Shown here: positions 2,658 through 50,947 of the stretch, piece after piece | Layout of the letters: each line of letters opens with the position of its first letter | How positions within the stretch are numbered: position 1 is the stretch's first letter | IMG/VR virus record: IMGVR_UViG_3300036852_000461 | Coordinates: 1 to 55,787 of that record | From: a virus | Taxonomy: Duplodnaviria; Caudoviricetes | Length of the DNA: 55,787 bases | Strand: one strand, 5' to 3' | Program-made: the position numbers and the translations under genes | Notes under the pieces: generated by a model | Seen by the model: the letters and a program-made list of their open reading frames with translations, nothing else | What the model was told of the DNA's origin: nothing | Databases searched by the model: none

Positions 2658-3232
2658 AGCGCGACCCAATGGAGCGGTTCCTTTCGTTCGTGCGGATCGA
2701 TGTCGATGGCTGCTGGATCTGGACGGGCTACATCACACCGGACGGGTATGGCCAGTTCTGGGCCGACGGAACGAACCACCGAGCGCACAAATGGATCTAC
2801 GAGCAAACACACGGCCCCGTGCCGTCCGGACGTGAACTCGACCACTTCAGATGCGATAAGCGCGCCTGTGCGCATCCCGACCACGTTCGCTCGGTCACAA
2901 CTCGCGAGAACGTCCTGCGCGGTCGGGGATCCGCAGCCAGGAAGCGCGCTCAGACGCATTGCGTCAACGGACATGAGTTCGACGAGGACAACACCTATAT
3001 CCGTTTGAACGGGGCGCGGAGCTGCATCGCATGCCAACGAGAACGCCAGCGTGCTCGTTACATCACACGCGCTCGTCGGGTTCCGACACATTGTCCCCAG
3101 GGCCACCCATACACGCCCGAGAACACCAGGGTCTACTGGACCAAACAGGGTCGGCGAAAGACCCGATGCCGGACTTGTCATCGCGAGAAGAGCAGAGCGC
3201 GACGTCGTGAATTGGCTCGGAGCGTGGCATGA
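2654..3232 (+). CDS. HNH homing endonuclease with two C-terminal Zn modules
   Basis: CWIWTG...GYG...AHK...ELDHFRCDKRAC..PDH...EN, followed by THCVNGH..CIAC and THCPQGH..CRTC. Confidence 0.9.
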   Translation: MKRDPMERFLSFVRIDVDGCWIWTGYITPDGYGQFWADGTNHRAHKWIYEQTHGPVPSGRELDHFRCDKRACAHPDHVRSVTTRENVLRGRGSAARKRAQTHCVNGHEFDEDNTYIRLNGARSCIACQRERQRARYITRARRVPTHCPQGHPYTPENTRVYWTKQGRRKTRCRTCHREKSRARRRELARSVA

Positions 3233-3441
3233 CGGCCTCGACGCGCTTTACGAAAGGCGATCTGGTCCAACTGCCACGTCGTCTCGGCAGCGGCGTGGGA
3301 GTCGTCGTTCAGTCATGGCGTCGACCGCTCGACGGCGCTGAGATTTGCACAGTCCAGCACGAGGTAGGCGATCACGCCCGGGCGACGGTCGTCTGTGAAG
3401 ACGAGCTTCTGCGCGTGGGGCGGATCGAGGTGCCCACATGA
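3229..3441 (+). CDS. Hypothetical protein (SH3/KOW-like start FTKGDLV)
   Basis: ATGA-coupled at both ends. Confidence 0.65.
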   Translation: MTASTRFTKGDLVQLPRRLGSGVGVVVQSWRRPLDGAEICTVQHEVGDHARATVVCEDELLRVGRIEVPT

Positions 3442-3809
3442 GCGAACGCACACAGTCGGCTGCGGTGCAGATTCATGTGCTCTCACCCGATGTCGACAAC
3501 ATCCGCTCCAACAGTTGGTACAAGGACGACGTAAGGACGATCTTCGCAACTCTGGGGTTCGGGATGGACCATGACTCACCGGAGCTGACAGTCAGCGGGC
3601 GCGACGACGAGTTGGCGGGATTCGCGCGCAAGCTCCGTGTCTTCGCCTCGCAGATCGATGCGACGGTCGACTGTGCCGAAGCGGCCGTCTGCTGCCCGGT
3701 GTGTGGTGAAGCGCTTCCCGAAGGTGACGCTGGCTGGGGTAGTTGTCCCCAAGCTTCCAATCATGACTCGCTGACTGCGGCCACCGAGCCCGCCGAGGTG
3801 TTGTCGTGA
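3438..3809 (+). CDS. Hypothetical protein
   Basis: Coupled, SD GAGG, CPVC motif. Confidence 0.65.
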   Translation: MSERTQSAAVQIHVLSPDVDNIRSNSWYKDDVRTIFATLGFGMDHDSPELTVSGRDDELAGFARKLRVFASQIDATVDCAEAAVCCPVCGEALPEGDAGWGSCPQASNHDSLTAATEPAEVLS

Positions 3810-4105
3810 CCGCCTCTTGTGAGTTCGACGCCGCCGCGCATGTCCTCCGTGCGCCGTGCCTGATCCACGCGACCGAGGCGCACATCGACGACAGCCGGTG
3901 CGACATCCAGTGGGAGTCGATTCTCGAGCTGCCGTGGTCGGACGGACAGCAGGTGCTGATCGATCTCGCCTTCGAGCTCTGGACCGGGCACAGCCGCGGG
4001 GAGTCGAGCTTCTGCGACCTGTTCCGTTACGTCGACGAGGAGTCGTTCGATCGTGCGGTGGACGCACTGCTCATCCGGCGTGGGCGCACGCAGGCGGTGG
4101 CGTAG
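3806..4105 (+). CDS. Hypothetical phage protein
   Basis: GTGA-coupled; WSDGQQVLIDLAFELW segment. Confidence 0.7.
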   Translation: MTASCEFDAAAHVLRAPCLIHATEAHIDDSRCDIQWESILELPWSDGQQVLIDLAFELWTGHSRGESSFCDLFRYVDEESFDRAVDALLIRRGRTQAVA

Positions 4106-4255
4106 GTGGGTCGTCAGGCCGAGCGCAACCGGATGTCGGCGATGCTCGCCCACGAGCCGCAGTGCACAGATGGACGACGCGAATGTCGGTCGTGCAGGGC
4201 GATTCGGGACCGCCAGAAGTGGGAGCGGCAGAAGGAGGCACGTCGTGCCGCGTAA
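4106..4255 (+). CDS. Small CxxC protein (49 aa, not in ORF track)
   Basis: VGRQAERNRMSAMLAHEPQC..ECRSCRAIR; fills the gap and overlaps the next start. Confidence 0.5.
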   Translation: MGRQAERNRMSAMLAHEPQCTDGRRECRSCRAIRDRQKWERQKEARRAA

Positions 4256-5183
4256 CGCGACGACGGGATCCGGCGGCCGGTACTACACGTGGAGAAAGGA
4301 GAAGTTCTGGAGCGTGACTACCCTCATCAGCCAGGGCCTCCCGAAGGGCGAGGTCCTCGTCAACTGGGCGAAGAAGTTCACCGCCGAGTACGCGTGCGCG
4401 AACATCGAGCAACTCAACGCGTTGCTCAAGCCGAACGCCGACGGCAAGATCGACCGTCAGGGCGCGATCGACTGGTTGAAGGAAGCATCGTTCCGTTCGC
4501 GGGACCGAGCCGCCGATATCGGCTCGAAGTTCCATGAAGCCGCCGAATCCTACAAGCTCGGAAAACCGCGGCCTCCATGGCCAGAAGAGATCCGTGGTCG
4601 CATGGCCGCCTTCGACAAGTGGCTTGCCGACTTCAAACCCGAGTTCAAGGTCGTCGAGGCTTCGGTCTACAACCGCTCCGAGCATTACGCCGGGACGATG
4701 GATGCGATCGTCACGCTGAAGGTCGATCGCGACGCGCTCGAGACGGTCTTCGCTTTCGATGGCGGTGGGCTGTTCGCGCCGGACATCGATCTCGATGCAG
4801 ATGGCGGACTAACCCTGCTCGTTGACTACAAGACCTCGAAGACCGGCATCTATCCCGAGGTCGGGCTCCAGCTGTGCGCCTACCGCAACGCCGAGTTCAT
4901 CGCCATGCCCGACGGCACTGAGGTCGTGATGCCGAAGGTGCATGGCTGCGCAGCCCTGCACATCAAGGACATGGACGATCCGATGACCGACCCCGACAAG
5001 CCGTACGACTTCATCGGGGTGGTGAGCGACGACGAAGTCTTCCGTGCCTTCCAGTACTGCCGCGAGAACTTCCGCTGGCGCGAGCAGCTGTCCAAGCGTG
5101 TGCTCGGTGGACACATCCTGCCCGGCCTGCCGGCCTCAGCCGCAGAGCAGGCCCGCGTGCTCGATCTGGAGGCGGCGAAGTGA
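4245..5183 (+). CDS. PD-(D/E)XK exonuclease (Cas4/RecB-like recombination nuclease)
   Basis: SVTT, G..FH, YAGTMD, LLVDYKTS and QLCAY motifs; SD AAGGAGG before GTG 4245. Confidence 0.85.
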   Translation: MPRNATTGSGGRYYTWRKEKFWSVTTLISQGLPKGEVLVNWAKKFTAEYACANIEQLNALLKPNADGKIDRQGAIDWLKEASFRSRDRAADIGSKFHEAAESYKLGKPRPPWPEEIRGRMAAFDKWLADFKPEFKVVEASVYNRSEHYAGTMDAIVTLKVDRDALETVFAFDGGGLFAPDIDLDADGGLTLLVDYKTSKTGIYPEVGLQLCAYRNAEFIAMPDGTEVVMPKVHGCAALHIKDMDDPMTDPDKPYDFIGVVSDDEVFRAFQYCRENFRWREQLSKRVLGGHILPGLPASAAEQARVLDLEAAK

Positions 5184-9761: not shown

Positions 9762-10444
9762 TCGGGATCGTCAAGCGGCTAGAGCGCTTTCAAACGAGCT
9801 ACGCCCTTAACGACAACGGCTGCTGGGAATGGCAGCGAGGCAGGCGGCCCAATGGCTATGGCGTGCTGATGATCAATAGGAGTCCTCAATACGCGCATCG
9901 CGTCTCGTTCATGCTCCATGTCGGTCCAATCCCCGACGGGCTATGTGTCTTGCACCGTTGCGACAACCGATGCTGCGTCAACCCGGACCACCTGTTCCTC
10001 GGCACAAAGGGTGACAACAATCGCGACCGAGCAGCGAAGGGTCGGAGTGCTCCACGTCACGGCGAGTTCTCAGCGAGCCGGAAGCTGACGTGGGAGGACG
10101 TTCGGTTCATTCGCGCGAACTACCGGCGCGGTAGCCACACCTGGGGCCAGACCGCCCTCGGCCGTCGCTTCGGCGTGTGCCACGAGACCATCCGCAAGAT
10201 CATCAACGGCGATCATTGGATCAACGATCCCGCGCTCTCAGTTGCCGTCGGCCCTCCCACCGACACGCCCAGGCCGGGGTCGGCGGCAACCAAAAGCGTC
10301 GTGACGAGACTGGCCCCCTGCCCGGTATGCAGCATGCCAATCGCTGAGCACACCAACGACGCCGCGCGCGTGTGCATGGTGCGCATGGGGCTGGCTGGTG
10401 AACGGACCCCTCGCTTACCTACCGGGGGTAAGGCAGATGTCTAA
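9758..10444 (+). CDS. HNH homing endonuclease with HTH and C-terminal extension
   Basis: CWEW..GYG..AHRVS..VLHRCDNRCCVNPDHLFLGT..DN; KLT..DVR.IR HTH. Confidence 0.9.
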   Translation: MIGIVKRLERFQTSYALNDNGCWEWQRGRRPNGYGVLMINRSPQYAHRVSFMLHVGPIPDGLCVLHRCDNRCCVNPDHLFLGTKGDNNRDRAAKGRSAPRHGEFSASRKLTWEDVRFIRANYRRGSHTWGQTALGRRFGVCHETIRKIINGDHWINDPALSVAVGPPTDTPRPGSAATKSVVTRLAPCPVCSMPIAEHTNDAARVCMVRMGLAGERTPRLPTGGKADV

Positions 10445-14150: not shown

Positions 14151-14791
14151 GAAAACGGAATCGGAATGGGGTCAAGCTGCCGCACACGTGCTGCGGCGAG
14201 GTCTTCACAACGTCGCAGCTCTGGTCGGCGCACAAGCGAAGGGTCCACGGTCCACCGGGCGGGTATCCGTGCCCACACTGTGATCTCGTCTCGACGGAGC
14301 CCGGCGCGCTCGGTCGTCACCTGGAGACGCACGATCCTGTCGCCCAGCACAACCGCTTCTGGTCTCGTGTGGACAAGGACGGCCCGGTTCCCGAGCACGC
14401 CCCCGAGCTTGGCCCGTGCTGGGTGTGGACGGCGTCCCGTAACCGCAACGGCTACGGCAACTTCAAGTGGCCCGGCACGGGCACCGGCCTCGGCGGCAAG
14501 TACGCGAGCGCCCACGTCTACGCCTACACGACGCTTGTCGGGTCCATCCCTGACGGCCTGACGCTCGATCACCTCTGCCGCAATCGACCGTGCGTGAACC
14601 CTGCACATCTTGAGCCCTGTACGCAGGAAGAGAACTTCGAGCGCTACCTGGTCACCCGCGAGCAGGTTCGATGTGGAGTCTGCGGGTTCATGGCCTTCGG
14701 CACCGTCGGTCTCTCCACGCACGCGAGGATGAAACACGAACTGACGCTGGCAGCGGTTTCGGAGACAGCTACCGGAGGCGACGATGCCTAA
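14147..14791 (+). CDS. HNH endonuclease flanked by C2H2 zinc fingers
   Basis: Two N-terminal and one C-terminal C2H2-like fingers; RFWSRVDK..CWVW..GYG..LDHLCRNRPCVNPAHLE. Confidence 0.88.
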   Translation: MRKRNRNGVKLPHTCCGEVFTTSQLWSAHKRRVHGPPGGYPCPHCDLVSTEPGALGRHLETHDPVAQHNRFWSRVDKDGPVPEHAPELGPCWVWTASRNRNGYGNFKWPGTGTGLGGKYASAHVYAYTTLVGSIPDGLTLDHLCRNRPCVNPAHLEPCTQEENFERYLVTREQVRCGVCGFMAFGTVGLSTHARMKHELTLAAVSETATGGDDA

Positions 14792-21402: not shown

Positions 21403-21668
21403 TCCGCCCCATGGCGCTGCTGTGCGAGCAACTCGGCGAGTCCGCTGATCGAGTCGATATCGAGGCGTATCACATGGCTGTGTCGGTCGAGGACTCAAGT
21501 GGCCCGACACCACTGTTCGGAGACCTCAATGCCTTCGTCGTGATGGCACGCAAGGGCCTCGTGATGTTCATGCGTGTCGTCCCGCCGAGCGTCATCGACG
21601 ACGAGGGTGTGTTGGTCGCGTTCGGGCAGATGCTGCACGGGGACCTCGTCCGTGCCGTCGCTGGCTGA
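21399..21668 (+). CDS. Hypothetical protein
   Basis: GTGA-coupled, between terS and terL. Confidence 0.55.
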   Translation: MIRPMALLCEQLGESADRVDIEAYHMAVSVEDSSGPTPLFGDLNAFVVMARKGLVMFMRVVPPSVIDDEGVLVAFGQMLHGDLVRAVAG

Positions 21669-22989
21669 ACGTCTCGCGGATCTCGACACCGACGACCGTC
21701 ACGCCGTCCTAGAGTTGCTCGACCCCGACGACCGGGAGGCGCTCTTGCGCGACTGGTCGTTCTGGGCGCGCCCCGAACAGCTCCTGCCGGATGACTTCGA
21801 GACGATCTGGCTCGGGGGCGGCCGCGGCTCAGGCAAGACGCGAGCCGGGGCAGAGGGCGCGGCCCAGCTTGCGCGCCAACACCCAGACGTCGACGGTGCC
21901 GTCGTCGCTCCGACGTTCCAGGCGGATGCGCTGCGCAAGTGCGTGGAGGGCGAGAGCGGCTTGCTGCGCGCGCTCGGTGGTGTAGGTGGTCCGCATGTCC
22001 GTGCGTTCAACCGTTCCGAGGGCGTTATCTACCTCCGCAGCGGTGCGTCGATCTTCGCGACGGGTTCGGACAATGGTGCCGTCCGGGTGCAAGGCGAGAA
22101 CCTCGGCTGGTGTTGGGTGGACGAGCCCGGCTTGTGGAAACGCACCACTTGGAAGCTCGCTTGGGAGGAATCGATCCAGTTCGCGGTGCGTCGGGCGCCG
22201 GCGAAGAAGATCGTGACGGGCACCCCGAAGGCTGGCCATCCGCTCGTGAAGCTACTCGACGAGGATCCGACCGTGGTGAAGGTCCGGATGCGTACAGCCG
22301 ACAACTTCGCGAACCTCGACACCGATTGGGTGACCAAGATCATCGCGAAGTACGACGGCACGCGTCTGGGCGCGCAGGAACTTGACGGCGTCCTGATCCC
22401 CGAAGTCGAGGGCGCGCTATGGCTGTGGGTGTGGATCGAGCGCAACCGCTGGAAGCTCGCCGCTCCCCCGCCCCTGCTGCGTGTCGTGGTTGGGTGCGAC
22501 CCCTCTGGTGGTGCCAACGAGATCGGCATCGTGGGAGCCGGGCGCATCATCTCGCCGTGTCCGTGTGGGGGCGAGGATGAGCACGGCGCGCACTTCGCGG
22601 TGCTGGACGACCGCTCGCTCGTGGCTTCGCCGGAACGCTGGGGGCGCACGACGATCGACCTCTACGACGAGCTCGAGGGAGACCGCGTCATCGCGGAGCG
22701 CAACTTCGGTGGGGACATGGTCGAGTCCACGATCAGGGTGGCCGACCCGACTGTTCCGGTGAAGGTCATCACCGCTTCGAGGGGCAAGACCCAACGCGCC
22801 GAGCCCATCTCGGCCCTGTACGAACAGAACCGGGTTCACCACGTCGGCGTCTTCGCCGAGCTTGAGACGGAGTACACCTCGTGGGTGCCGGGCGACGACT
22901 GGTCGCCCAACAGACTCGACGCCGGCGTCTGGGCCCTGACCGAGCTGCTCGGCCCGCAGAGCAAGATGCCCCGCTACCGCGTGCGCTGA
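21652..22989 (+). CDS. terL: Terminase large subunit
   Basis: Walker A GGRGSGKTRAGAE, Walker B WVDE, TGTP, nuclease VGCDP, ERNFGG, SPNRLDA.VW. Confidence 0.95.
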   Translation: MPSLAERLADLDTDDRHAVLELLDPDDREALLRDWSFWARPEQLLPDDFETIWLGGGRGSGKTRAGAEGAAQLARQHPDVDGAVVAPTFQADALRKCVEGESGLLRALGGVGGPHVRAFNRSEGVIYLRSGASIFATGSDNGAVRVQGENLGWCWVDEPGLWKRTTWKLAWEESIQFAVRRAPAKKIVTGTPKAGHPLVKLLDEDPTVVKVRMRTADNFANLDTDWVTKIIAKYDGTRLGAQELDGVLIPEVEGALWLWVWIERNRWKLAAPPPLLRVVVGCDPSGGANEIGIVGAGRIISPCPCGGEDEHGAHFAVLDDRSLVASPERWGRTTIDLYDELEGDRVIAERNFGGDMVESTIRVADPTVPVKVITASRGKTQRAEPISALYEQNRVHHVGVFAELETEYTSWVPGDDWSPNRLDAGVWALTELLGPQSKMPRYRVR

Positions 22990-23062: not shown

Positions 23063-23230
23063 GTGGCTGAGCGCTACGCGCGCGTCATCACGTGGGTGCA
23101 GATCGTCTGCGCTGCGGCGACTGTCGTCTCGTCGGCGCTGGCTGGTTTCCTCATCTCGCCGGCGGGCGGCTTCCTCGGCATCGCCACATCGAGCTTCGCG
23201 CTGTTCCTCGTGGCGGTCGTCTACGCGTGA
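23063..23230 (+). CDS. Small membrane protein (55 aa, not in ORF track)
   Basis: Two hydrophobic helices; GTGA-coupled to the portal. Confidence 0.65.
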   Translation: MAERYARVITWVQIVCAAATVVSSALAGFLISPAGGFLGIATSSFALFLVAVVYA

Positions 23231-25416
23231 GCCTGCTGCCGGCGCTGCGCTCTGCAGCTGAGCCTGAGACCAAGGCGGCGACGTCGAGCACGCCGTTTCT
23301 TCCCCAGAGCCGCCAGGGCCGTCCTTACCGCGACGACTGGGACATCGAGCGAGCGATCCGCGACGGCTACAAGCGCATCACGTGGGTGTTCCGGGCCGTG
23401 CACATCCGAGCGACCAAGAGCGCGGGGCTGCCCCTGGTCATGCGCAAGGATGATCCCGAGACCGGCGACGAGGTCCCGCACAACTTGCTGCCGCTGCTCA
23501 ACGCCTATCCGAACGACGAGGAGTCGGCCTACGTCTTCCGCTACCGTCTGTCGGCACAGGTCGACCTCAACCGCCGCGGAGCGTTCGTGGAGATCCAGCG
23601 CGCGCGTCTGGGAAGCGACGCTGTGGCGCTGCGGCTGCTGCCGTCCACGACCGTGCCCGTCCCGGGAACCGGCGGTGCGTTCCTCGATCGCTTCGAGGTG
23701 ATGCTCGAGGGTCGCAAGGTCAAAGAGCTGGCACCCTCCGATGTCGTGTGGGTCCGCCATCCGCATCCGACCGACCCGTACGGCGGGATGACGCCGCTCG
23801 AGGCCGCCGGCATCGCCGTGGACAGCGAGTGGCTGGCCAAGCTCTTTCAGCGGTCGTTCATGCAGAACAACGCTGCGCTCGGAAAGCTCGTGCTCGTCGC
23901 CGGCGCCGAGAACATCCAGGAGTTGCAGGCGCGCTTCGACGCGCGCAGCGGCCCCGCTCAGTCCGGACGAACGGTCGTGCTCGAAGCCTCGGCCATGGAC
24001 GACGACGGTCCGACCGGGAAACTCGGTGGCGTGAACGTCATCGACATGTCGGCCTCCCCGAGGGAAGCCTCGTTCATCGAGATGCGCAAGTACACCAAGG
24101 AAGAGATCTTCGGTGCCTACGGCGTGGCCATCTCGATCGGTGTAGCCAACGCGGCAGATAGAACGTTCGACAACGCCGGGGTTGAAGAACTCGGCTTCTG
24201 GCGACACACGATGATCGACCACTGTCGCCTGCTCGACCGGCCGTGGGACCGCATCGACGGCGACCCGTCCACGTTCCTCGCCCACGACTTCTCCTCGGTG
24301 TGGGTGCTGCAGCGCGACGAGGTCGAGCGTGAGAACCATTTGCTCGAACAGGTCAAGGAACGAGTGCTTGTGCCCGATGAGTTCCGTAAGGAGGTTGGTC
24401 GCGAGCCGTTCGCGCAAGGCGGCGACGTCGCCCTCGCCTCTATCACCCTCTACCCCGTCGCCTCCATCACCCCGGACGCCATCGGCGCGTCGACGTCGGG
24501 TGCGAAGTCGGCCTCAGCGGACAGCGACCTGGTGACGTGGGGTCCGTTCCGCGTCGATGCCAAGCGGCTGTCGTCACGTCGCGCGGAGCGCCTGCGGCAG
24601 ATCACCTCGTGGGAGAAGCAGGCCAAGCGCATCACCGTGCGCTTCTTCGATCGCCAGGAGCGCACGGTCGTCGAGAAGCTTCGTGGCCGCAAGGCGCGCG
24701 AGGGCACACGGCATTGGCGCATCGACGGAGCCGAGCCCAAGGTGCCCGCGATCGTCGGCGGTGACGGCACGAAGGTCATCGCGGTCGATGACATCTTCGA
24801 CATCGACCGTTGGAACGAGCAGCTCGTGGCCGATCTCGGCGGCGTGGTGCAGTCGGTCGTCGAGCACTTCGGCGAGGACGCCTACGACGCCATCACCTCG
24901 GCCAAGACGGCCGTGGCCACCGAGACCAAGGCGGAGGGCGGGTTCGATCCGTCTTCGCGCGCCGTCACGCAGTTCATCCTGAACCGGCAGAACAAGATCA
25001 CCGGTGTGAACGACACCACCTACGCCGCCATCGTCGACGCGCTGGCCGAAGGGGAAGCGGCGGGCGCGACGATCGACGGACTGGCCGATCTCGTCACGGC
25101 GGTGTTCGACCAGGCCCGCGGGTATCGGGCCGAGACGATCGCGCGCACGGAGGTCGTGAGCGCAGCCAATGCGGGTGCGAAGGAAGGCGCCGTGCAGTCG
25201 GGAGTCGTCGAGACGCAGTCGTGGCTTGCGACCGAGGACGAGCGCACGCGCGAGACACACGCCGAGGCCGACGGGCAGACGGTCGGCTTGGACGAGACGT
25301 TCACGGTGGGCGATGCGGAACTCGCCTACCCCGGTGATCCGGACGGGCCGCCCGAGGAGACCATCGCATGTAGGTGCTCAATCACTTTTGGAACAGACGA
25401 AGGGCCGATTCTCTAA
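23227..25416 (+). CDS. Portal protein fused to a MuF/SPP1-gp7 head morphogenesis domain
   Basis: HK97-type portal motifs (WV.RAV...A, G.AF, PYGG.PL, G..VLE, EI..AYGV); C-terminal RAETIARTE..W.AT.DERTR.TH...DG...PGDP.....CRC. Confidence 0.9.
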   Translation: MSLLPALRSAAEPETKAATSSTPFLPQSRQGRPYRDDWDIERAIRDGYKRITWVFRAVHIRATKSAGLPLVMRKDDPETGDEVPHNLLPLLNAYPNDEESAYVFRYRLSAQVDLNRRGAFVEIQRARLGSDAVALRLLPSTTVPVPGTGGAFLDRFEVMLEGRKVKELAPSDVVWVRHPHPTDPYGGMTPLEAAGIAVDSEWLAKLFQRSFMQNNAALGKLVLVAGAENIQELQARFDARSGPAQSGRTVVLEASAMDDDGPTGKLGGVNVIDMSASPREASFIEMRKYTKEEIFGAYGVAISIGVANAADRTFDNAGVEELGFWRHTMIDHCRLLDRPWDRIDGDPSTFLAHDFSSVWVLQRDEVERENHLLEQVKERVLVPDEFRKEVGREPFAQGGDVALASITLYPVASITPDAIGASTSGAKSASADSDLVTWGPFRVDAKRLSSRRAERLRQITSWEKQAKRITVRFFDRQERTVVEKLRGRKAREGTRHWRIDGAEPKVPAIVGGDGTKVIAVDDIFDIDRWNEQLVADLGGVVQSVVEHFGEDAYDAITSAKTAVATETKAEGGFDPSSRAVTQFILNRQNKITGVNDTTYAAIVDALAEGEAAGATIDGLADLVTAVFDQARGYRAETIARTEVVSAANAGAKEGAVQSGVVETQSWLATEDERTRETHAEADGQTVGLDETFTVGDAELAYPGDPDGPPEETIACRCSITFGTDEGPIL

Positions 25417-25910
25417 TGACCGCGCGCAGGGTGGTCGAGAGGGAAGGCTTCGAACGACTGTGGTTTGGTTCCCTGCCCACGACGGTTCAGCACTCTGGTC
25501 TGAGCCCAGCGCCGCAGTTGCTCTTCGTAGATGACGTCATCGATTGCAAGTTTTCCCCCCTTCGATTGACGAGGAAAGCTCACAACTATTTCGGCGAGTT
25601 CTCGCTTGAGCACGAGGTATGGGATAAGAGGCTCAAGCAGCCGCCGAGCTTGATCTCCGACCACTTGCCATCGGTGCACCAGCGACCACTCAGGCTTTCC
25701 TGCACTCTTGGCGCGGTAAGTAATACCGAGGCCGGTCACGTCGCGGAGGAACCCGATCAGACCCGCGTGGCTGTTCGTGACCATCACGAGTCCACGCATG
25801 CCCCACTCGCGGCCCTGGCCCTTTGTTCCTCGACCCTTCGTGCGCTGAATCGTGATGACGCCTTCACCATCAATCATCGCTGCTACGTAAGCGCAAGTGA
25901 CGGGCTTCAT
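25413..25910 (-). CDS. Free-standing LAGLIDADG homing endonuclease (antisense)
   Basis: AYVAAMIDGEG.I.I..., LL..L.PYLVLK...A; TACGTT 6 nt upstream of the ATG suggests a leaderless start. Confidence 0.88.
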   Translation of the reverse strand: MKPVTCAYVAAMIDGEGVITIQRTKGRGTKGQGREWGMRGLVMVTNSHAGLIGFLRDVTGLGITYRAKSAGKPEWSLVHRWQVVGDQARRLLEPLIPYLVLKRELAEIVVSFPRQSKGGKLAIDDVIYEEQLRRWAQTRVLNRRGQGTKPQSFEAFPLDHPARGH

Positions 25911-25981
25911 TGCAACAACGTACTGCTTGCCAGAGACACGCTTATCGTGTCGTTCTGGATGCTGATGCACGGAGCCATGCC

Positions 25982-26167
25982 GTGAGCCCGCAACCGATGG
26001 TCGTCAAGGTCGGGACGCGTGTGGTCGGCTCGCAGTGGATGAAGCCGTCGCTGCTCGTGCTCCGCCTGGGCGCGTGGATGCTCTCGCGCGTGAACGTCGA
26101 GATCACCTGCGACGGCAAGGTCGTGCGTATAGCGCGTCCGCACGTGGCGGTCGAGCTCAAGCTTTAA
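25982..26167 (+). CDS. Hypothetical protein
   Basis: SD GGAG, GTG start, GC3-biased. Confidence 0.55.
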   Translation: MSPQPMVVKVGTRVVGSQWMKPSLLVLRLGAWMLSRVNVEITCDGKVVRIARPHVAVELKL

Positions 26168-26192
26168 GCTTTAGAAAGCGAGGAGGGTGAAC

Positions 26193-28772
26193 ATGGGCGG
26201 CACGAAGACGGCGGTCAAGGACGGGGACTACACCGCGCTCGAGGGCTTCGAGCGCAAGGTCGTATCGGTGACCGGCGTCAAGGTCCTGGACGACGCCAAG
26301 GGCATCGTCCAGGCCTACGTCGCGGGCATCGGCAACGTGGACGCGGGTGACGACATCATCGAGCCCGGCTTCTTCGAGTCCTCGCTCAACAAGCACCTGA
26401 AGAAGAACCCCAAGGGCGTCTATGCCCACATCTGGGAGCGGCCGGTCTCGAAGATGCTGGAGACGCGCACCGTTGCGGCCGGCTCGCCCGAGCTCCCGGA
26501 CCGGATCAAGGCGGCGGGCGCCGGCGGCCAGTACGTGAAGATGCAGTACATCCTCACCACCCAGGGCGGACGCGACGCGTTCGAAGAGGTCAAGTTCTTC
26601 GGCGATGAGCAGGAGTGGTGCGTCGACGAGGACACCGAAATCCTCACGACGCGCGGGTGGTTGCGATACGATGAGCTGACGACCGAGGACGAGGCGTACG
26701 TCCTGGACCCGCAGACCTTGACCGGTCGGTTCGAACCGGTTCAGGCCGTCAACGTATGGCCACGGAAGCGCCGGACCATGCGTCTGATCGAGACGGGTGG
26801 GCACTCATCGTTGACCACGCTCAATCACCGCTGGCTCGCTTGGCGGCGGGAGAAGAATCGCTACGCCGTCGCGTGGCGCACTACCGAGCAGTTGAACGCT
26901 GCGGCGGGTATCTTCCGCACGGCCCCGCGAGCCGATGTCGTGGACACGCCGAAGTGGTCGGATGCGTTCGTGGAGATCGTCGCGTGGTTCTTCACCGAGG
27001 GATGGCTGTCACGGGGCGCCGTCTACATTGGCCAATCGGAGAGGAAGAACCCGGCTCACGTGGCGGCGATCCGCGCGGCACTGACGTCTGAGTTCCCCGG
27101 CGGGTTCACCGAGCACGCTCGCAAGGACGATATGTCGCGGTTCTACCTGCGTGCCGATGCGTCCGAAGCGATCCGTGCTGTCACATCAAAGAACAAGGCC
27201 CCGAGCGCGGCGTTCCTGTGTTCGCTCACCCAAGCCCAACTCGTGCTCTTCATTGCTCGATGCATCGATGGCGACGGTCACCGTGGACACGGAGGTGTGT
27301 GCTTCTACCAGTCCGACGAGAACGCCTCAAAGATGTTCGAGATGGCCTGCGCCCTCGCTGGCGCGCCGACGAACAGCTACCCCGGCAAGGACTACGGCAA
27401 TCGGTTCGGTCGGGCACCATTCGTGACGCGATTGCTGAAATCCTCGGTCGCCAAGCCGCTGGACGCGATCCGGGTGAAGACGTACAACGACAAGCCGCGC
27501 CGGACGCCCGCGACGGACGAGCTTGTGGAGCACGTCGGCATTGTCTGGTGCCCGACTACGCCGTCAGGTACATGGCTCGCACGACGTCGCGGAACCGTCT
27601 ACTTCACGGGCAACTCTGTCGGGTACGTGCCCATCGGCGCCTACCGCGACAAAGAAGGCAAGCGTCACCTGCCCGAGAGCGAGTGGTACGAGTGGTCGCA
27701 GGTACTGTTCGGGATGAACCCGATCACCGCGACCATCGGCGTCAAGGCCCTGGCCGAGCAGGCCAACCTCTCGTTCGAAGCGGCTCTGGAGCGCCTGCGC
27801 AAGATGGCCGCCGACGAGACCAACGGCGAGAAGGTCCGCGCGATGATCGCCGAGCTCGGCTCGGTCGACTCCAAGGCGGCCATCGCCCGGCACAAGACGG
27901 CGACCTCCGATGACGCGTGGGACGGTCCGGCCAACGAGGCGCGCCTGTCCAACGACGCCGGGGCCGCCACCTTCCGCAAGGCGTTCGCCTGGGTTGATTC
28001 GGACAAGGATGCCGACACCAAGGCGGCGTATCGATTCGTCCATCATGAAGTCGACTCCGATGGCAAGGTGGGAGCGGCCAACGTGAAGGCGTGTACGACG
28101 GGCGTCGGCGTGCTGAACGGTGGCCGCGGCGGTACGACCATCCCCGACGACGACGTCGAGGGCGTCTACCGCCATCTGGCCGGCCACATCACCGACTCGG
28201 GCGCAGAGCCTCCGGAGCTGAAGACCTCGGGCGACGGCGAAACGAAGACGAACGAGACGGAGACCAAGCAACTCGCCGGCTCCATTGAGGAGCGCCTCGT
28301 GGCGATCTCCGATGCGATCGACGCGTGGGTGAACGACACCTACCCGGCCGAGGCAGAGACGAACGAGCGCTCGGTCTACGGGTGGTCGGTCGCCACGTGG
28401 GACGCTCACGTCGTGGCGTGCGTCGTCGACTACGGAGCCGAGACGGCCGCCGAGCGCCGCCGGTTCTTCGACTTCCCCTATGTCGTTCAGACCGACGGGA
28501 CGGTCGTCCTCGGTGCGCCGACTGAGGTGCAGCTCGAAACCGTCGTGACACCGAAGTCGTTGGTGGCCGCGCTCGAATGCAAGGAAGGCCGGCGCCATTC
28601 GGCCAAGGACACCGAGGCGCTACAGAGCATCCACGACGCCGCGGTGGTGCTCGGTGCTGCATGCGGTGCCGAGGACGAGAAGGTCGTCACGGCCGATGAG
28701 TTGACCGGCAAGTCGTTCATCCCGGTGAGCGCGTTCATGGAGCTGGAGTTGGCCCGCGCGCGCTTGCAGTGA
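26193..28772 (+). CDS. HK97-family prohead protease with intein and long C-terminal extension
   Basis: GNVD..DDII.PG.F, H at YAHIW, EW|S.GY, EWSQVLFGMNP; SD AGGAGG. Confidence 0.9.
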   Translation: MGGTKTAVKDGDYTALEGFERKVVSVTGVKVLDDAKGIVQAYVAGIGNVDAGDDIIEPGFFESSLNKHLKKNPKGVYAHIWERPVSKMLETRTVAAGSPELPDRIKAAGAGGQYVKMQYILTTQGGRDAFEEVKFFGDEQEWCVDEDTEILTTRGWLRYDELTTEDEAYVLDPQTLTGRFEPVQAVNVWPRKRRTMRLIETGGHSSLTTLNHRWLAWRREKNRYAVAWRTTEQLNAAAGIFRTAPRADVVDTPKWSDAFVEIVAWFFTEGWLSRGAVYIGQSERKNPAHVAAIRAALTSEFPGGFTEHARKDDMSRFYLRADASEAIRAVTSKNKAPSAAFLCSLTQAQLVLFIARCIDGDGHRGHGGVCFYQSDENASKMFEMACALAGAPTNSYPGKDYGNRFGRAPFVTRLLKSSVAKPLDAIRVKTYNDKPRRTPATDELVEHVGIVWCPTTPSGTWLARRRGTVYFTGNSVGYVPIGAYRDKEGKRHLPESEWYEWSQVLFGMNPITATIGVKALAEQANLSFEAALERLRKMAADETNGEKVRAMIAELGSVDSKAAIARHKTATSDDAWDGPANEARLSNDAGAATFRKAFAWVDSDKDADTKAAYRFVHHEVDSDGKVGAANVKACTTGVGVLNGGRGGTTIPDDDVEGVYRHLAGHITDSGAEPPELKTSGDGETKTNETETKQLAGSIEERLVAISDAIDAWVNDTYPAEAETNERSVYGWSVATWDAHVVACVVDYGAETAAERRRFFDFPYVVQTDGTVVLGAPTEVQLETVVTPKSLVAALECKEGRRHSAKDTEALQSIHDAAVVLGAACGAEDEKVVTADELTGKSFIPVSAFMELELARARLQ
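26619..27614 (+). mobile_element. Intein (332 aa) with LAGLIDADG endonuclease
   Basis: Begins CVDEDTEILTTRGW; block B TTLNHRW; AWFFTEG and CIDGDG motifs; ends VWCPTT...FTGN followed by Ser. Confidence 0.93.
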
Positions 28773-28898: not shown

Positions 28899-30398
28899 AT
28901 GCGCATCCTCTCCAAGCTCTGGGAGCTGTGGCTGTGGCTCCGACTCCTCACCGGCGCGGCCGTCGCTCCCCCGGCTGGCGGTCTCGCCGCAAGCTTCCGT
29001 CCGATCGGCGGCGGTGAATCCGATGCCGCGATCAAGGAACGCCTCAAGGAACTGAAGGTCGCCGCCAAGACGGCCCTGGACGCAGCCACCGAGGCGGGAC
29101 TCAACGCATCGGCGAAAACGATCGAGGTCGAAGCTCCCGACGGTTCAAAGGTCGCGGCCATGGTCGTCGAGCCCGAGCACAAGGCGGCCTACGACACTGC
29201 GATGGGGCAGTTCAACGAGCTGCAGCCGGAGATCGAGAAGCTCGAGGCACTGCTGAAGGGCCACGAGTGGGGCAACCAGCCCGGCGCGCCGTCGGTCGCG
29301 CTGGACGCAGCCGCCATCGCGGAGATCATGAAGAACGCCGGCGGGCATTCGCGCGAACGCAAGACGCTCGGGCGGATGTTCGTCGAGTCCGAGGAGTACC
29401 AGGCGGCCAAGGCCGCCAACGTTCCGCACATGCAGAAGGCGTTCGAGTTCAAGGGGACGCTTCCCGATCCAATCCTGCGCAAGGACGTGTACTCGACGCT
29501 TCCCGGCGGAGATGCGCCGTGGCAGAGCTTCGGCTCGATCCAGACGGACCCGTTCGTCGAGTCGCCGCACCGCACCCAGCGCATCCGCGATCTGTTCGGC
29601 GTGCGCAATACCAGCTCGCCGCTCCTGCGGTACTTCCGGGTGCTCGGCTACCTGGCCGAGGGCGGGGCGACCAATGCCGCCTCGACGGTCGGCCAGCGCA
29701 ACGAGGCCAACGACGGCTTCCAGAGCAAGCCGCACACCAGCCTCAAGTTCGAGCCCAAGATCGCCAACGCGGCGCGCATCGCGCACTACGAGCTTGCGCA
29801 CCGCGACGCCCTGACCGACGAGCCGCAGCTGCGCGGCATCATCGACTCCGAGCTGCTGTACGGGCTGCAGATCGTCGAGGATGCGCAGATCCTGTACGGC
29901 ACGGGGACGGGCGACGACCTCGAGGGCATCCTCACCGTCGGCGGCGTGCAGGGCTTCGTGCTCGGCACCGACGGTCCGGCACCGTCGACCGACAACATCG
30001 CCGATGCCCTGCGGCGTTCGATGACGCTGGTGACGCTCGCGGAGTTCGAAGCCACGGGCGTCGTGATGCATCCGAGCGACCTCGAGAACCTCGAGCTGTT
30101 GCGCTCGGATGGTGATGAGCGGTTCTACCTGTTCGCCGCCACTATCCAGGCCGGAGGCGAGCCGCGCGTGTGGCGCGTGCCCGTCGTGCAGTCCCAGGCC
30201 ATCGTGGCCGGGACGGCCCTGGTCGGTGCGTTCGGGCTCGGGGCGCAACTGTACGACCTCGAGCAAGCGAACATCCGCATCTCCGACCAGCACGACAAGC
30301 TGTTCGTGGAAAACGGGATCGCCATCCTGGCTGAGGAAAGGCTGCTTGTAGCCACCAAGCGTCCGGAGGCCTTCGTCCTTTGCAGCAACCTCGCGTAG
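28899..30398 (+). CDS. Major capsid protein (HK97 fold) with N-terminal scaffold/delta domain
   Basis: KTLG..FVES, RIRDLF, KP...L.F, IAH, D.PQL..II...L.YGL...ED.QIL.G.G, F..N..AILAEER.....RPEAF. Confidence 0.95.
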   Translation: MRILSKLWELWLWLRLLTGAAVAPPAGGLAASFRPIGGGESDAAIKERLKELKVAAKTALDAATEAGLNASAKTIEVEAPDGSKVAAMVVEPEHKAAYDTAMGQFNELQPEIEKLEALLKGHEWGNQPGAPSVALDAAAIAEIMKNAGGHSRERKTLGRMFVESEEYQAAKAANVPHMQKAFEFKGTLPDPILRKDVYSTLPGGDAPWQSFGSIQTDPFVESPHRTQRIRDLFGVRNTSSPLLRYFRVLGYLAEGGATNAASTVGQRNEANDGFQSKPHTSLKFEPKIANAARIAHYELAHRDALTDEPQLRGIIDSELLYGLQIVEDAQILYGTGTGDDLEGILTVGGVQGFVLGTDGPAPSTDNIADALRRSMTLVTLAEFEATGVVMHPSDLENLELLRSDGDERFYLFAATIQAGGEPRVWRVPVVQSQAIVAGTALVGAFGLGAQLYDLEQANIRISDQHDKLFVENGIAILAEERLLVATKRPEAFVLCSNLA

Positions 30399-30468: not shown

Positions 30469-31158
30469 GTGTCCAGGGATAGATCGATGGTTGAGCGAGT
30501 CACCGTTACCTGCGTGAGATGCGGCAAATCGGTGCAACGGTATGCGAGCGACGTCGCTCGTCGGAAGACCCCGCGATCGTTCTGCTCGCATGAGTGCAGG
30601 AACTTGTTGGGCGCCAAACCGCGCCGAGGTGCTGAGGTGACGTGCGCGCTGCCGGGGTGCTCCAACACGTTCTACGTTGGACCGAGCAAGAAGCGGAAGT
30701 TCTGTTCAACGAGGTGCCTCAACGACTCGAACAAACGACCCCGGGACGATCGAACATGCGAGCACTGCGGCAAGGGCTTCGCAATCCTCAAATCGCAGCT
30801 CCGTTGGAACGCCGGGCGGTTCTGCTCATCGAAATGTTCAAGCGCATTCCGCTATGCAGCCACCATCGGGGTGCGTAAGAAGCGCTCCGATGGTTATGTG
30901 GACGTGCGCCAGCCCGACCATCCAGACGCGCAGGCGACGGGTTGGATCTCCGAGCATCGGCTGGTCATGGAGAAGAAGGTCGGGCGACGACTGCTCCCCG
31001 ACGAGACAGTCCATCACATAAACGGTGCGCGTGACGACAACCGGCCCGCGAACCTTGAGCTTTGGGTGAGCAGACATCCTCCCGGTCAGCGTGTCAAAGA
31101 CATCGTCGCCTGGTCGGTCGAGATGCTTTCCCGCTACGCCCCCGAACGCCTAGCCTGA
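30469..31158 (+). CDS. HNH endonuclease with N-terminal Cys-rich (CxxC..FCSxxC) repeats
   Basis: Three CxxC..FCS..C repeats; EHRLVME...GR.L...E.VHHING.RDDNRP.NLELW. Confidence 0.9.
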   Translation: MSRDRSMVERVTVTCVRCGKSVQRYASDVARRKTPRSFCSHECRNLLGAKPRRGAEVTCALPGCSNTFYVGPSKKRKFCSTRCLNDSNKRPRDDRTCEHCGKGFAILKSQLRWNAGRFCSSKCSSAFRYAATIGVRKKRSDGYVDVRQPDHPDAQATGWISEHRLVMEKKVGRRLLPDETVHHINGARDDNRPANLELWVSRHPPGQRVKDIVAWSVEMLSRYAPERLA

Positions 31159-31568: not shown

Positions 31569-32071
31569 GCAGGATACGTTCGGTGTCCGCCTATCCAGAT
31601 TTTATGCAGCGGGCAATCGCTCAGCTCGCTAGTAAATCGATCGTGGTCGGAGACTGTCGATTCTGGACCGGCGCACTGAATGAACACGGTTATGGGGTTA
31701 TGTCTGGGCCAGGGGGACGAGATCGAGCGCGCCCTCTCTTGGTTCATCGAGTTGCCTACGAGATTGCGCACGGCGGAATCGATGAGGAACAGATGGTCCT
31801 GCATTCGTGCGACCAGCGGCAGTGCTTTGAGGTATCACACCTGAGACAAGGGGTAGCGGCAGACAACACCCACGACATGGTCGTACGCGGCCGAGGCCGC
31901 GGCATGAATTCCGGCAAGACTCATTGCAAACGTGGACACCTGCTAGCGCTCGACAACGTTCACATCGATAAGAACGGTCGTCGCCATTGCCGCGAGTGCG
32001 GACGAATTCGTGATCACGTGCGTGTTCGTGAAAGCGGATGGGCGCGTCAGCGCGCTCGTCAGGGATCATGA
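31565..32071 (+). CDS. HNH endonuclease
   Basis: C.FWTG...GYG..VHRVAY..VLHSCD...C....HL; KTHCKRGH..CREC. Confidence 0.85.
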   Translation: MSRIRSVSAYPDFMQRAIAQLASKSIVVGDCRFWTGALNEHGYGVMSGPGGRDRARPLLVHRVAYEIAHGGIDEEQMVLHSCDQRQCFEVSHLRQGVAADNTHDMVVRGRGRGMNSGKTHCKRGHLLALDNVHIDKNGRRHCRECGRIRDHVRVRESGWARQRARQGS

Positions 32072-48354: not shown

Positions 48355-48360
48355 ATGGCG

Positions 48361-48813
48361 TTATCGAAGACCGCGCGCGCGACGCCGTCGCTGAGCGAGT
48401 TTGGTCCTCTCGCGATGGCAGATCGAACAGACTCGGTGATTCGGGCGCGAGGGGAAGAATGTGTCATATGGATGCCCCTTCGGGCAATGCGTCTTGCGTG
48501 TTTCCTTGCTCCGTCGCTTCCGCGCGGAGTCGCGCATGTTGTCGCTCCGCGTTCCGAGGAACAGGTGCGCCGGGTTGCAGCACGCCCGGTTGTCGCATCG
48601 GTGACAGACGTGCAGGCCGTTTGGGATCGGACCATAGACCAATTCGTACGAGACGCGATGCGCGCCTACGGCTCCGCCGTATTTCCCCCCTCTCCCAATA
48701 GCTCCATAACCATTCGCGTACCTTGCGCCAGTCCACTCCCAGCATTGCGTCCAATGGCGCTTATCGACCTTGGGCCAGAACCGTTCCTCGATAGGTCGAG
48801 CGGGACAGGACAT
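48361..48813 (-). CDS. HNH endonuclease (antisense)
   Basis: [50 protein letters not shown]. Confidence 0.92.
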
Positions 48814-48844
48814 CGGCAGTTGTTATCACGAGGAGGTAAACGCC

Positions 48845-49831
48845 ATTAGCTTCGATTCAGGAGTGATCACCAGCGCCACCCCGCACGCGGCGCTCGCGAC
48901 GAAGATCAAGGCGCTTTTCGGTGGGTCGGGCGTCGCCAACTGGTCGTTCGTCGAGAACATCCCGGCCGGGACGGGGGCAGGTCAGTCGGGCTCGGCGTCC
49001 TACTCGATCGACGTCTACAAGTGCGCGGGAAGCGGGACCGACGCGAACGACGCGGCGACGGACTGGTACGTAGCGTGGCGGCTGCCGGTGACGGACGGTG
49101 CTGTGAGTTCCAATTTCAATGTGTTCGAAGACTACGAGGGTGGTACGAACAAGCGGTTCAAGCGTCCAGTTGCAGGGCCCGCTGTTCAAGCCCCAACGGG
49201 TACGGGGTTCTGGCGTTCTGACACTTATGCCGCCGCTGCAAGCGTGGTCGGTGTCCAGCAGGAGACCATTTTCACGCTCAACACGACTGGCTTCTCGTAT
49301 TGGATCAAACTGACAAAGAATGGCATCTGGGTAACGTGCCAAGTCGGTAGCACTCTCGGAACCCACATCGCTCTGCTCGGTGACACGATGGTCGCCTCAG
49401 GTGTCGCGACGGACTCGTGTCCACTCTTTGCGCACGGAGCCGGAGGCGGTTCGGGTATCGAAGCGTCCAGAGAACCTGGTGTGACTGACGGTACGAAAAC
49501 AAAATGGAACTATGGAGAATGTGCTCCTTGGACTCTGTTAGCAGGAAGCAACGCACCAAACAACAACGATCTCTTCCAAGGGAATAAGGTTGCCCTTTCA
49601 CGCATCTGCGTCCTGAGGACAGGGGGAGCAGGAGTGATCAACCTCATTGGTGCCTTCCGGGCATTGCTGAAACCAGAATTGATCCTCTGTTTCCAGACGG
49701 GTGGGACGGTGAACATCGGCGACACGATAGTCATCAACGGCGTCACTTACGTTGTGATGTGGCCCGGTACGGGAACGTTCGGAGCCTTCATAGTCACGAA
49801 CGCCTTCGTGTTGGTGACCCCTCAAACCTGA
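48845..49831 (+). CDS. Minor tail/receptor-binding-like protein
   Basis: Gly/Ser/Thr-rich frame ending GDTI.ING.TY.V. Start uncertain: ATT 48845 after GAGGAGG, or GTG 48863. Confidence 0.7.
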   Translation: MSFDSGVITSATPHAALATKIKALFGGSGVANWSFVENIPAGTGAGQSGSASYSIDVYKCAGSGTDANDAATDWYVAWRLPVTDGAVSSNFNVFEDYEGGTNKRFKRPVAGPAVQAPTGTGFWRSDTYAAAASVVGVQQETIFTLNTTGFSYWIKLTKNGIWVTCQVGSTLGTHIALLGDTMVASGVATDSCPLFAHGAGGGSGIEASREPGVTDGTKTKWNYGECAPWTLLAGSNAPNNNDLFQGNKVALSRICVLRTGGAGVINLIGAFRALLKPELILCFQTGGTVNIGDTIVINGVTYVVMWPGTGTFGAFIVTNAFVLVTPQT

Positions 49832-50258: not shown

Positions 50259-50282
50259 ATGCCCTGTGGATGCGTGGAACCA

Positions 50283-50924
50283 CTACGAACTCTGTTCTCG
50301 CAAACGCGCACGCCGCTCGCGCGTCTTCTCGCGAAGGCACGCAAGGCAGTATGGGATGCCTCGATAGGTTCGCCGTTGATGCTCCGAACGCAGATGGCCG
50401 CGCGGACAGTAGAGGTCGGGTTCCTTCGGTGGCTGAGCGGCTCGTCGGGCGGCGCGGTACTTCTCTGCGCGCATCCTCGAGCAGGTCTTGCAGAGTCGGT
50501 TTCCATTGGAGAGCCGCGTGGTGTTGGCCTCGTCGAACGGATGCCCGCGCAGGCAATGCGTGAGGCCGCGCCACTTCGCGGCTCCACCTTGTCGTCCAGC
50601 GAGCCAGTTCTCGCGCTGCGTTGTGATCCGGAGGTGGTCGAGTTCGTAGCACCGGCGATGCGGACAGAGCCCTTCGGCCACGACGCAGAGGCCGAGTGCC
50701 GCCGCTTCGTTGTGGCAGGTGTGGTCGAGCGTCATCCCATCTGGGATCGGCCCGCGCATCTTCGTCCAAACGTAGCGGTGGACGACCCAGACCCTTCCTT
50801 CGACCTTCACTCGTCCATATCCGAGTCCGTTCATGTAGCCCTTCCAGAGCAGACAGCCCTCGGGCGTCCGCTCGCCGTTGGCGAGGACTTCGTCGAGCGT
50901 CCAGGGCTTGTTGCGTCGAGCCAT
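50283..50924 (-). CDS. HNH endonuclease (antisense) with two Zn modules
   Basis: GCLLW.G..GYG..VHR..LDHTCHN..C..DHL...REN; THCLRGH and YCPRGH. TGtTATGCT 8 nt upstream of the ATG. Confidence 0.9.
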   Translation of the reverse strand: MARRNKPWTLDEVLANGERTPEGCLLWKGYMNGLGYGRVKVEGRVWVVHRYVWTKMRGPIPDGMTLDHTCHNEAAALGLCVVAEGLCPHRRCYELDHLRITTQRENWLAGRQGGAAKWRGLTHCLRGHPFDEANTTRLSNGNRLCKTCSRMRAEKYRAARRAAQPPKEPDLYCPRGHLRSEHQRRTYRGIPYCLACLREKTRERRARLREQSS

Positions 50925-50947
50925 CGGGAAGGAGCATAACACACCCC

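Follow-up and report, generated by a model that had tools for sequence, protein, structure and literature searches.

Introduction

Endonuclease genes lying on the strand opposite to their host gene have been described inside inteins, and the closest case is that of the antisense LAGLIDADG homing endonucleases within the MuF inteins of Gordonia phages (Gosselin, Arsenault & Gogarten, bioRxiv 10.1101/2025.01.02.630785). The portions of that preprint available to us cite earlier antisense cases in Synechocystis dnaX and a Chloroflexus SpoVR-like gene (Gorbalenya 1998; Gogarten 2002), propose that a free-standing endonuclease invaded an intein, and report no free-standing relative at the MuF site; the dnaX case is also treated in a 2026 preprint. 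Here we describe a homing endonuclease gene (HEG) of this lineage outside any intein. It occupies 25413..25910 on the minus strand of IMG/VR virus record IMGVR_UViG_3300036852_000461, a 55,787-bp phage contig referred to throughout, at its full length, as the window. The HEG lies backwards behind a portal-MuF fusion gene (23092..25416, plus strand) and beneath a sense-strand open reading frame (ORF; 25416..25985, plus strand), hereafter the shadow ORF, which overlaps the MuF stop at one end and the putative start of the next gene at the other.

The window HEG shares with the Gordonia MuF inteins its lineage (41% identity over 162 aa to the homolog of phage Nordenberg), the host gene MuF, the antisense orientation with the HEG 3' end towards the MuF N-terminal part, the Cys-Arg-Cys (CRC) site and a stop-free sense frame. 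Unlike those inteins, the window has an uninterrupted, stop-terminated MuF gene with the HEG standing free 36 nt downstream of the site, and the sense frame, instead of serving as an intein linker, forms an ORF by itself with separate start and stop codons. A second parallel is the so-called collaborative homing that Bonocora & Shub (2009) and Zeng et al. (2009) reportedly described, in which free-standing phage HEGs are said to cut a neighbouring gene at the position where an intron or intein inserts. The window resembles that situation in having a free-standing HEG beside a conserved site occupied in other genomes by a self-splicing element, and in its apparent co-converted flank; it differs in that the splicing element is an intein and not an intron, in that the HEG is antisense under a coupled sense ORF, and in that cleavage is only predicted.

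How HEGs fit into their surroundings has been reviewed for phage T4 (Edgell, Gibb & Belfort 2010, PMC2988022). The review emphasises that a HEG entering a genome has to disturb its neighbours as little as possible, and the sections available to us mention overlapping stops and starts, UAAUGA at nrdA/mobE among them, and a single HEG in antisense orientation, segD. Coupling in T4 serves the HEG's own same-strand translation, unlike in the window, and those sections describe no doubly coupled ORF on the opposite strand. Free-standing HEGs at an intein site also occur between the halves of split inteins in 'fractured genes' (Dassa et al. 2009, PMC2677866); there the host gene is split and rejoined by trans-splicing, whereas the host gene of the window is whole. 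A further candidate source, PMC8966425, proved not relevant, as the 'opposite strand' passages available from it concern cleavage sites.

Free-standing HEGs, antisense HEGs in inteins including those of MuF, and the need for HEGs to fit host expression are thus already known. In open-access papers and bioRxiv, supplements excluded, we found no account of antisense HEGs crossed by a sense ORF, or of polarity or coupling across them, no case of free-standing antisense HEGs purged of antisense stops in one frame and bordered by operon-style junctions, no free-standing relative of the MuF-intein HEGs at the same site with a co-conversion tract, and no link between such a purge and a free-standing HEG at the MuF site. 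Among the selfish elements of phages, free-standing HEGs are the most common, and how they enter packed essential operons and leave the phage viable is only partly understood.

Identity of the antisense endonuclease gene

Motif, alignment and predicted fold identify the gene as a free-standing, homodimer-type (I-CreI-like) LAGLIDADG HEG, with cleavage predicted. Its single motif, VAAMIDGEG, contains D34, E36 and G37, which are invariant in 7/7 and 9/9 family members in two alignments. Searched against the PDB, the family profile matched I-MsoI (5.4e-9 for the tandem chain, 7.8e-4 for the monomer), I-CreI (2e-3) and also I-CvuI. An AF2 model made from nine sequences (pLDDT 86.7, pTM 0.81) has the element order H-E-E-H-E-E-H, and its best Foldseek matches were I-CreI variants, I-CvuI and I-MsoI over the full length (E 4e-9 to 1e-8; TM 0.66-0.75). 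The likeness to these enzymes comprises a single LAGLIDADG helix with an acidic catalytic residue and a modelled full-length fold. The genes for I-CreI, I-MsoI and I-CvuI reside in group I introns of chloroplast rDNA in algae. Unlike these enzymes, the window HEG is free-standing in a phage, its sequence identity to them is only 16-22%, and the Pfam search returned no family, a LAGLIDADG model included. It matches phrog_5046 (3.9e-15), whose PHROG label 'HNH endonuclease' is a mislabel.

The gene runs for 165 codons from ATG 25910 to TAG 25413 on the minus strand. Its frame stays open up to GTG 25970 (25413..25970), but the true start is most likely ATG 25910, because homologs are 165-170 aa long and align from M21. 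The protein-collection call P0007 (25413-25877, minus strand; 154 aa) begins at a Met inside the LAGLIDADG helix (MIDGEG), and homologs place the start 11 codons upstream of it. A promoter and terminator scan of 25000-26400 returned none on either strand. By eye, TACGTT lies 6 nt upstream of ATG 25910 (25911-25930, minus strand), with no Shine-Dalgarno sequence; it could be the -10 element of a leaderless mRNA. Leaderless mRNAs are common in actinobacteria.

That the HEG is free-standing follows from several observations. MuF closes with a stop codon, there are no Hint blocks beside the HEG, and the composition of the HEG is foreign, with a third-position GC (GC3) of 0.61-0.63 and A3 of 0.18 in a genome whose host genes have GC3 of 0.83-0.89. 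Its presence is also sporadic: an HEG follows MuF in the window and in the metagenome contig L158, and is missing in L019, L020, L025 and L030, which have MuF with the equivalent ending.

The sense frame and its junctions

Three antisense endonuclease genes of two families, one LAGLIDADG and two HNH_3, are each overlaid end to end by a sense ORF, as the initial annotation had claimed. Its description of the LAGLIDADG locus holds in detail. The MuF stop TAA 25414-16 overlaps the shadow ATG 25416-18 in a TAATG junction (25414..25418), in which the HEG stop TAG (25415..25413) also overlaps the MuF stop. From there the frame, whose codons are in register with those of the antisense HEG, runs without a stop through 189 codons and closes at TGA 25983-85. 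This stop shares bases with GTG 25982 in a GTGA junction preceded by GGAG at 25971-74 and a 7-nt spacer (25971..25985 in all). GTG 25982 is a credible start for the next gene, judging from the spacing of GGAG and from a GC3 of 0.92-1.0 from its first codons. This gene would be a 61-codon ORF (25982..26167, plus strand; GC3 0.89 overall) without assigned function or family match in Pfam or PHROG. The shadow ORF thus has junctions of the coupled-cistron type at both ends, TAATG and GTGA.

The two further cases lie over antisense HNH_3 genes. ATG 48355 of the second shadow ORF (48355..48849, ATG to TAG, plus strand) abuts the TAG of the upstream gene and is preceded at 5 nt by AGGAGG; the ORF covers the HNH_3 gene 48361..48813 on the minus strand (Pfam HNH_3 1.3e-16). 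The third (50259..50939, ATG to TAA, plus strand) covers the HNH_3 gene 50283..50924/50954 on the minus strand, has GAAGGAGG upstream of ATG 50259, and its TAA 50939 falls 8 nt short of ATG 50948. The cassette of this last gene is flanked by 50241-50285 and 50927-50970, two copies of a ribosome-binding site, an ATG and seven codons reading MPCGCVE. The copies differ at four of 21 coding bases, all synonymous third positions; the first (ATG 50259) opens the third shadow ORF and the second (ATG 50948) opens the real downstream gene, which extends to 51613. The duplication looks like the trace of a one-sided homing event that copied the 5' end of the target gene.

These arrangements suggest a model for how a backward HEG may be tolerated. 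Lying antisense in a late operon of terminase, portal-MuF, protease and capsid genes, the HEG would place about 570 nt of antisense sequence in the late mRNA. One sense frame would be kept stop-free, beginning on the MuF stop and ending on the next gene's start, such that ribosomes leaving MuF re-initiate at the overlapping ATG, translate the whole stretch and pass on to the gene that follows. The selected trait would be ribosome occupancy, with no long untranslated gap, no Rho-type polarity and coupling kept, and the product would probably be a meaningless peptide, since selection would act on the absence of stops and not on a protein. We infer, with about an even chance of being right, that the sense frame is a translated bridge preserving expression of the downstream protease and capsid genes. 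Silencing of the HEG by antisense late mRNA, which the initial annotation had added, is speculation.

Relation to MuF inteins

The initial annotation missed that the HEG belongs to a lineage living antisense in MuF inteins, a setting in which the sense frame has to stay open. A tblastn search of phage records with the HEG matched 17 (Gordonia 9, Caulobacter 6, Xylella 2), and the nine Gordonia matches, including Nordenberg, SchottB, Barsten, Lennon, Sitar and Thing3, lie opposite a gene annotated as 'MuF-like minor capsid'. In Nordenberg gp9 the intein splits the MuF domain (..HEVIN/CLTDPDTPITT ... LACHN/CRCTMLIY.., slashes marking the splice junctions), and the HEG homolog lies antisense between the Hint halves. 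The same nested architecture is present in IMG/VR contigs L012 and L013 and in a Microbispora oryzae genome (L018), and is probable in the metagenome contig L157, where the C-junction alone was verified. Antisense nesting between ..I[NQ]/C.. and ..HN/CRCT.. is seen in L001, L002, L012, L013 and L018; the corresponding extein junction ..I[NQ]/CRCT.. is found in these five and in L024, and inteinless ..INCRC.. alleles occur in L019, L020, L025 and L030.

The MuF of the window is an inteinless allele, reading ..ETIA/CRCSITFGTDEGPIL and then stop (..ETIA/CRCS..). Whereas relatives run ..IN/CLTDPD..[HEG]..HN/CRCT.., the window has ..ETIACRCSITFGTDEGPIL, the stop codon and only then the HEG, so it is not an intein with an antisense endonuclease. 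Its CRC motif, TGT AGG TGC, lies at 25369..25377, and the intein of relatives sits immediately before the first Cys. As the HEG belongs to the MuF-intein lineage, its likely target is this CRC site. Compared with the AAC TGC CGN TGC ACN of relatives, the window codons GCA TGT AGG TGC TCA show several differences, which are consistent with a diverged, self-resistant site.

The HEG appears to have arrived together with its flanks. MuF GC3 is 0.75-1.0 up to 25365 and then falls to 7/16 from ..ATC/GCA TGT AGG TGC.. (the slash here marking the boundary; binomial P 3.6e-4 against 0.83); overall GC dips to 0.58-0.60, and host-like GC3 is back at GTG 25982. Since the drop coincides with the intein insertion point and the recovery with GTG 25982, the last 16 MuF codons, the antisense HEG and its 5' spacer form an imported, low-GC3 mobile cassette of about 616 bp (25366..25981), which looks like a co-conversion tract starting at the cleavage site. 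On this model the enzyme would cut HEG-less MuF alleles at or near the CRC codons, and repair would copy the HEG with a short MuF tail. The boundaries rest on composition because no empty-site allele was found among relatives: megablast against phages and a single-query search of viral contigs with P0001 returned none, portal-MuF relatives have at most 47% identity and none carries the 61-codon ORF, and no HEG-less joint appeared in contigs from the single sequencing run listed with the stretch, a DNA run from which the contig probably derives, no RNA run being listed. In L020, which lacks the 61-codon ORF, the protease gene is directly 3' of MuF. A search for repeats flanking the cassette gave nothing convincing; a 19-nt repeat at 25996 and 26207, 79% identical, is probably chance.

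The lineage thus offers a rival origin for the open frame, since within an intein any antisense stop would kill MuF, and this is the main alternative to the translated bridge. The window HEG would be a recent escapee, or an alternating copy, of the MuF-intein lineage that has yet to acquire stops, and the shadow ORF would have no function. The nested architecture is already published, six of the eight close relatives (41-48% identity; L001, L002, L012, L013, L018, L157) lie inside antisense-open frames of 840-1978 codons, and the GC3 of 0.61 against 0.83 for MuF may signal a recent arrival. At 41-48% protein identity, however, silent sites are saturated, so that freedom from stops was not passively inherited from the relatives sampled. 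No Hint remnants lie beside the HEG, which follows the CRC motif and the MuF stop instead of lying between splice junctions. Intein ancestry also leaves unexplained the start on the MuF stop together with the stop on the next start (1.3% of the shuffles described below), and the same layout over two unrelated HNH genes and at IMG/VR HNH loci. Finally, the free-standing relative in L158 (2776-3745), 43% identical, has six stops in its aligned sense frame. It converges with a 14-nt overlap on a MuF ending ..EERCGCRCVVLTVE and then stop (..GCRCVVLTVE), and about 400 nt separate it from the next gene on the MuF strand; by its sequence it is a second, independent free-standing case and a natural comparison without a bridge. 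We therefore consider intein legacy unlikely, if still the explanation to be taken most seriously beside a translated bridge.

Other occupants of the same MuF site were seen. L024, from a lower-GC phage, carries an intein there (..ETIN/CFTGDTLV ... GGIISQN/CRC..) in which an antisense 287-codon ORF (3623-4486, minus strand), VSR-type nuclease-like by eye, lies within 2885-4591 (plus strand); the sense frame is stop-free for about 290 AT-rich codons. L025 is an inteinless allele whose C-terminus, CRCVQLFLAAD followed by a stop, is identical to that of L024.

Chance as a possible source of the open sense frame

A second alternative is chance: GC-rich DNA often leaves the codon-aligned antisense frame open, and compact phage genomes normally have tight junctions. 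The initial annotation had fairly raised the first point as a caveat: the aligned antisense frame is open in 26.5% of 190-codon segments from 12 long host genes, and the HEG would be stop-free with P 0.28 at host codon usage. One of the five sense-oriented HNH genes of the window is also stop-free in this frame, and the start and stop of the shadow ORF could be relics of gene ends.

The composition of the HEGs themselves gives a different expectation. When third bases were permuted among each HEG's own four-fold codons and the antisense stops TTA, CTA and TCA were counted, the LAGLIDADG HEG, with none in 165 codons, had an expectation of 3.0 (P(none) 0.023); the HNH gene 48361..48813 (minus strand) had an expectation of 1.9 (P(none) 0.106) and the HNH gene 50283..50924 (minus strand) one of 4.3 (P(none) 0.0047), giving a joint P of about 1e-5. 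This null expectation is realistic, because the L158 homolog, with a GC3 of 0.62 like that of the HEG, has six stops. The open sense frame of the HEG exceeds chance.

Placement of the starts and stops, in which the initial annotation had located the signal, was assessed by shuffling synonymous third bases and the HEG 5' spacer with flanks fixed. Per 20000 trials, a sense ORF coupled at both ends, with its start close to the upstream stop and its end close to the next start, appeared 268, 328 and 6 times (1.3%, 1.6% and 0.03%) for the LAGLIDADG gene, HNH 48361 and HNH 50283, respectively, so that double coupling lies above the shuffled expectation in all three cases. Across the window, the five sense HNH genes contain 14 TTA/CTA/TCA codons in 1133 and the antisense HEGs one in 558 (Fisher p 0.028), and this single codon falls upstream of the likely start. 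Together with a depletion that is frame-specific and replicated in IMG/VR, these results already disfavour chance, which we regard as improbable.

The remaining alternative is a true overlapping gene pair, with the shadow ORF coding for a working protein. In its favour are the start and stop codons and the operon-like junctions, but we give it very little credence: the ORF has no PHROG family and no Pfam match above cut-off, its sense-frame similarity to Nordenberg (31% over 68 aa) is weaker than that of the HEG frame (41% over 162 aa, E 2e-37) and is explained by it, its GC by codon position (0.61/0.45/0.69, against about 0.68/0.47/0.85 in host genes) mirrors the HEG, and the HEGs beneath the three shadow peptides of the window do not all belong to one family. 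Conservation resides in the HEG frame, as its similarity is both higher and longer. An assignment of the shadow ORF to DUF3740 was rejected, the Pfam score being 16.8 bits against a cut-off of 25.

Replication among relatives of the HNH genes

The count of TTA, CTA and TCA in antisense versus sense endonuclease genes across phages, which the initial annotation had proposed, was carried out on 124 IMG/VR loci at which a relative of one or the other antisense HNH gene is encoded. Ten loci more than 90% identical to others were removed and 114 kept. The strand of the flanks was taken from a heuristic based on GC by codon position, in which ORFs overlapping the HEG were ignored to guard against circularity. 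Both flanks agreed at 54 loci, the other 60 falling outside the comparison (a flank was ambiguous at 43, one flank was unknown at 12, four were divergent or convergent, and one was unknown). At the 39 sense-placed loci, 106 antisense stops were observed against 114.9 expected and eight genes were stop-free against 5.2 expected (P 0.12). The 15 antisense-placed loci had 21 against 38.5 expected, with eight stop-free genes against 2.3 (P 5e-5); the stop-free fractions, 8/15 and 8/39, differ with a Fisher p of 0.043.

Depletion was found in the aligned frame only, with 0.80 stops per 100 codons in antisense-placed genes and 1.55 in sense-placed ones. The other two frames gave 2.99 versus 2.99 and 3.18 versus 3.13 per 100 codons, and the confinement of the depletion to the aligned frame argues against a general strand or trinucleotide bias. 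Operon-style junctions recur at the stop-free antisense loci. Those with the next gene are ATGA in L152 and L098, TGATG in L154 and an 11-nt overlap in L072; L049 shows a stop, 3 nt and an ATG as well as TTGA, and in L072 and L152 the upstream stop is followed after 2 nt by the shadow ATG. Late-gene status is confirmed for some of the neighbours, namely a tail spike-like gene, a major head protein gene and an endolysin gene.

Weighing the proposed translated bridge

Against the translated bridge stand a number of observations, beginning at the locus itself. The shadow ORF lacks a coding signature of its own, its GC3 of 0.69 mirroring the GC1 of the HEG, and ATG 25416 has no clear Shine-Dalgarno sequence and simply complements the last HEG codon, CAT. 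The junctions may partly be relics, with TGA 25983 as an ancestral MuF stop. Taken by itself the LAGLIDADG HEG gives a P(none) of just 0.023, and the P of 0.28 at host codon usage counts on the same side. The cleavage site is placed from composition and homology, and both translation of the bridge and relief of polarity are read from sequence statistics. Elsewhere, 7/15 antisense-placed HNH relatives carry stops (ten in L061), as do the antisense-placed LAGLIDADG relatives L158 (six) and L165 (seven). Flank orientation at the HNH loci is a heuristic and not a gene call, with 60 of the 114 loci outside the comparison; stop-free genes are in excess at the 43 ambiguous loci too (11 against 4.9 expected), and removal of duplicates only above 90% identity lets relatedness inflate the counts.

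Stop-free antisense placement is thus neither universal nor obligatory among HEGs. The suggestion in the initial annotation of a general strategy by which selfish nucleases enter operons without polarity stands in so far as the enrichment and the junction syntax recur in unrelated IMG/VR phages, and is not supported as a general rule, given the interrupted HNH and LAGLIDADG relatives. A translated bridge nevertheless accommodates both the open frame and the placement of its ends, and it leads to a wider proposal. Freedom from stops would pre-adapt HEGs to survive antisense inside an ORF or intein; backward HEGs in late operons would be selected for a stop-free, coupled bridge, and the window would represent the free-standing state that preceded inteins with antisense endonucleases. 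We put this wider proposal forward tentatively, as possible but somewhat short of probable.

If true, the frame-specific purge of stops would be a simple rule, readable from sequence, that explains which antisense insertions are tolerated, and it would improve phage annotation by indicating which strand holds the gene and why a second ORF exists. It would also show concretely how free-standing HEGs could have given rise to the 'non-canonical' inteins that carry antisense endonucleases, an origin so far modelled in words only. The proposal makes testable the idea that translation of a meaningless ORF is selected purely to protect downstream transcription.

Other features of the contig

The contig comes from a soil metagenome, with an estimated completeness of 76% and a GC content of 64.6%. 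Its rightward late operon includes the terminase large subunit (21574-22989; Pfam Terminase_6N/6C), the portal-MuF fusion, listed with 774 codons from GTG 23092 (GC3 0.83; Phage_portal 1.2e-33, Phage_Mu_F 1.3e-14, phrog_2662 portal 4e-105), the 61-codon ORF between cassette and protease gene, the head maturation protease gene (26187..28772, plus strand; phrog_80, 8e-12) and a 499-codon ORF (28899-30398).

Within the protease gene an intein-like insertion was recognised by eye at 26619-27614 (plus strand), starting ..EQEW/CVDEDTEILTTRGW and ending ..GTVYFTGN/SVGY. It contains two sense-strand LAGLIDADG-like stretches, VAWFFTEGW and IARCIDGDGH, and gave no Pfam match (E up to 1) and no PDB sequence match. 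Seven HNH_3 genes, the LAGLIDADG gene and this possible protease intein amount to a very heavy burden of selfish elements for a contig of 55.8 kb. The HNH_3 matches fall at 2780-2914, 9890-10024, 14510-14635, 30955-31062 and 31739-31867 in the five sense genes (plus strand) and at 48532-48666 and 50709-50783 in the two antisense genes (minus strand), both of the latter being those overlaid end to end. An HTH_31 repressor-like gene lies near one contig end (894-1484, minus strand) and a large serine recombinase with Recombinase and Zn_ribbon_recom domains at the other (54642-55760, minus strand), and from these two genes the phage is probably temperate.

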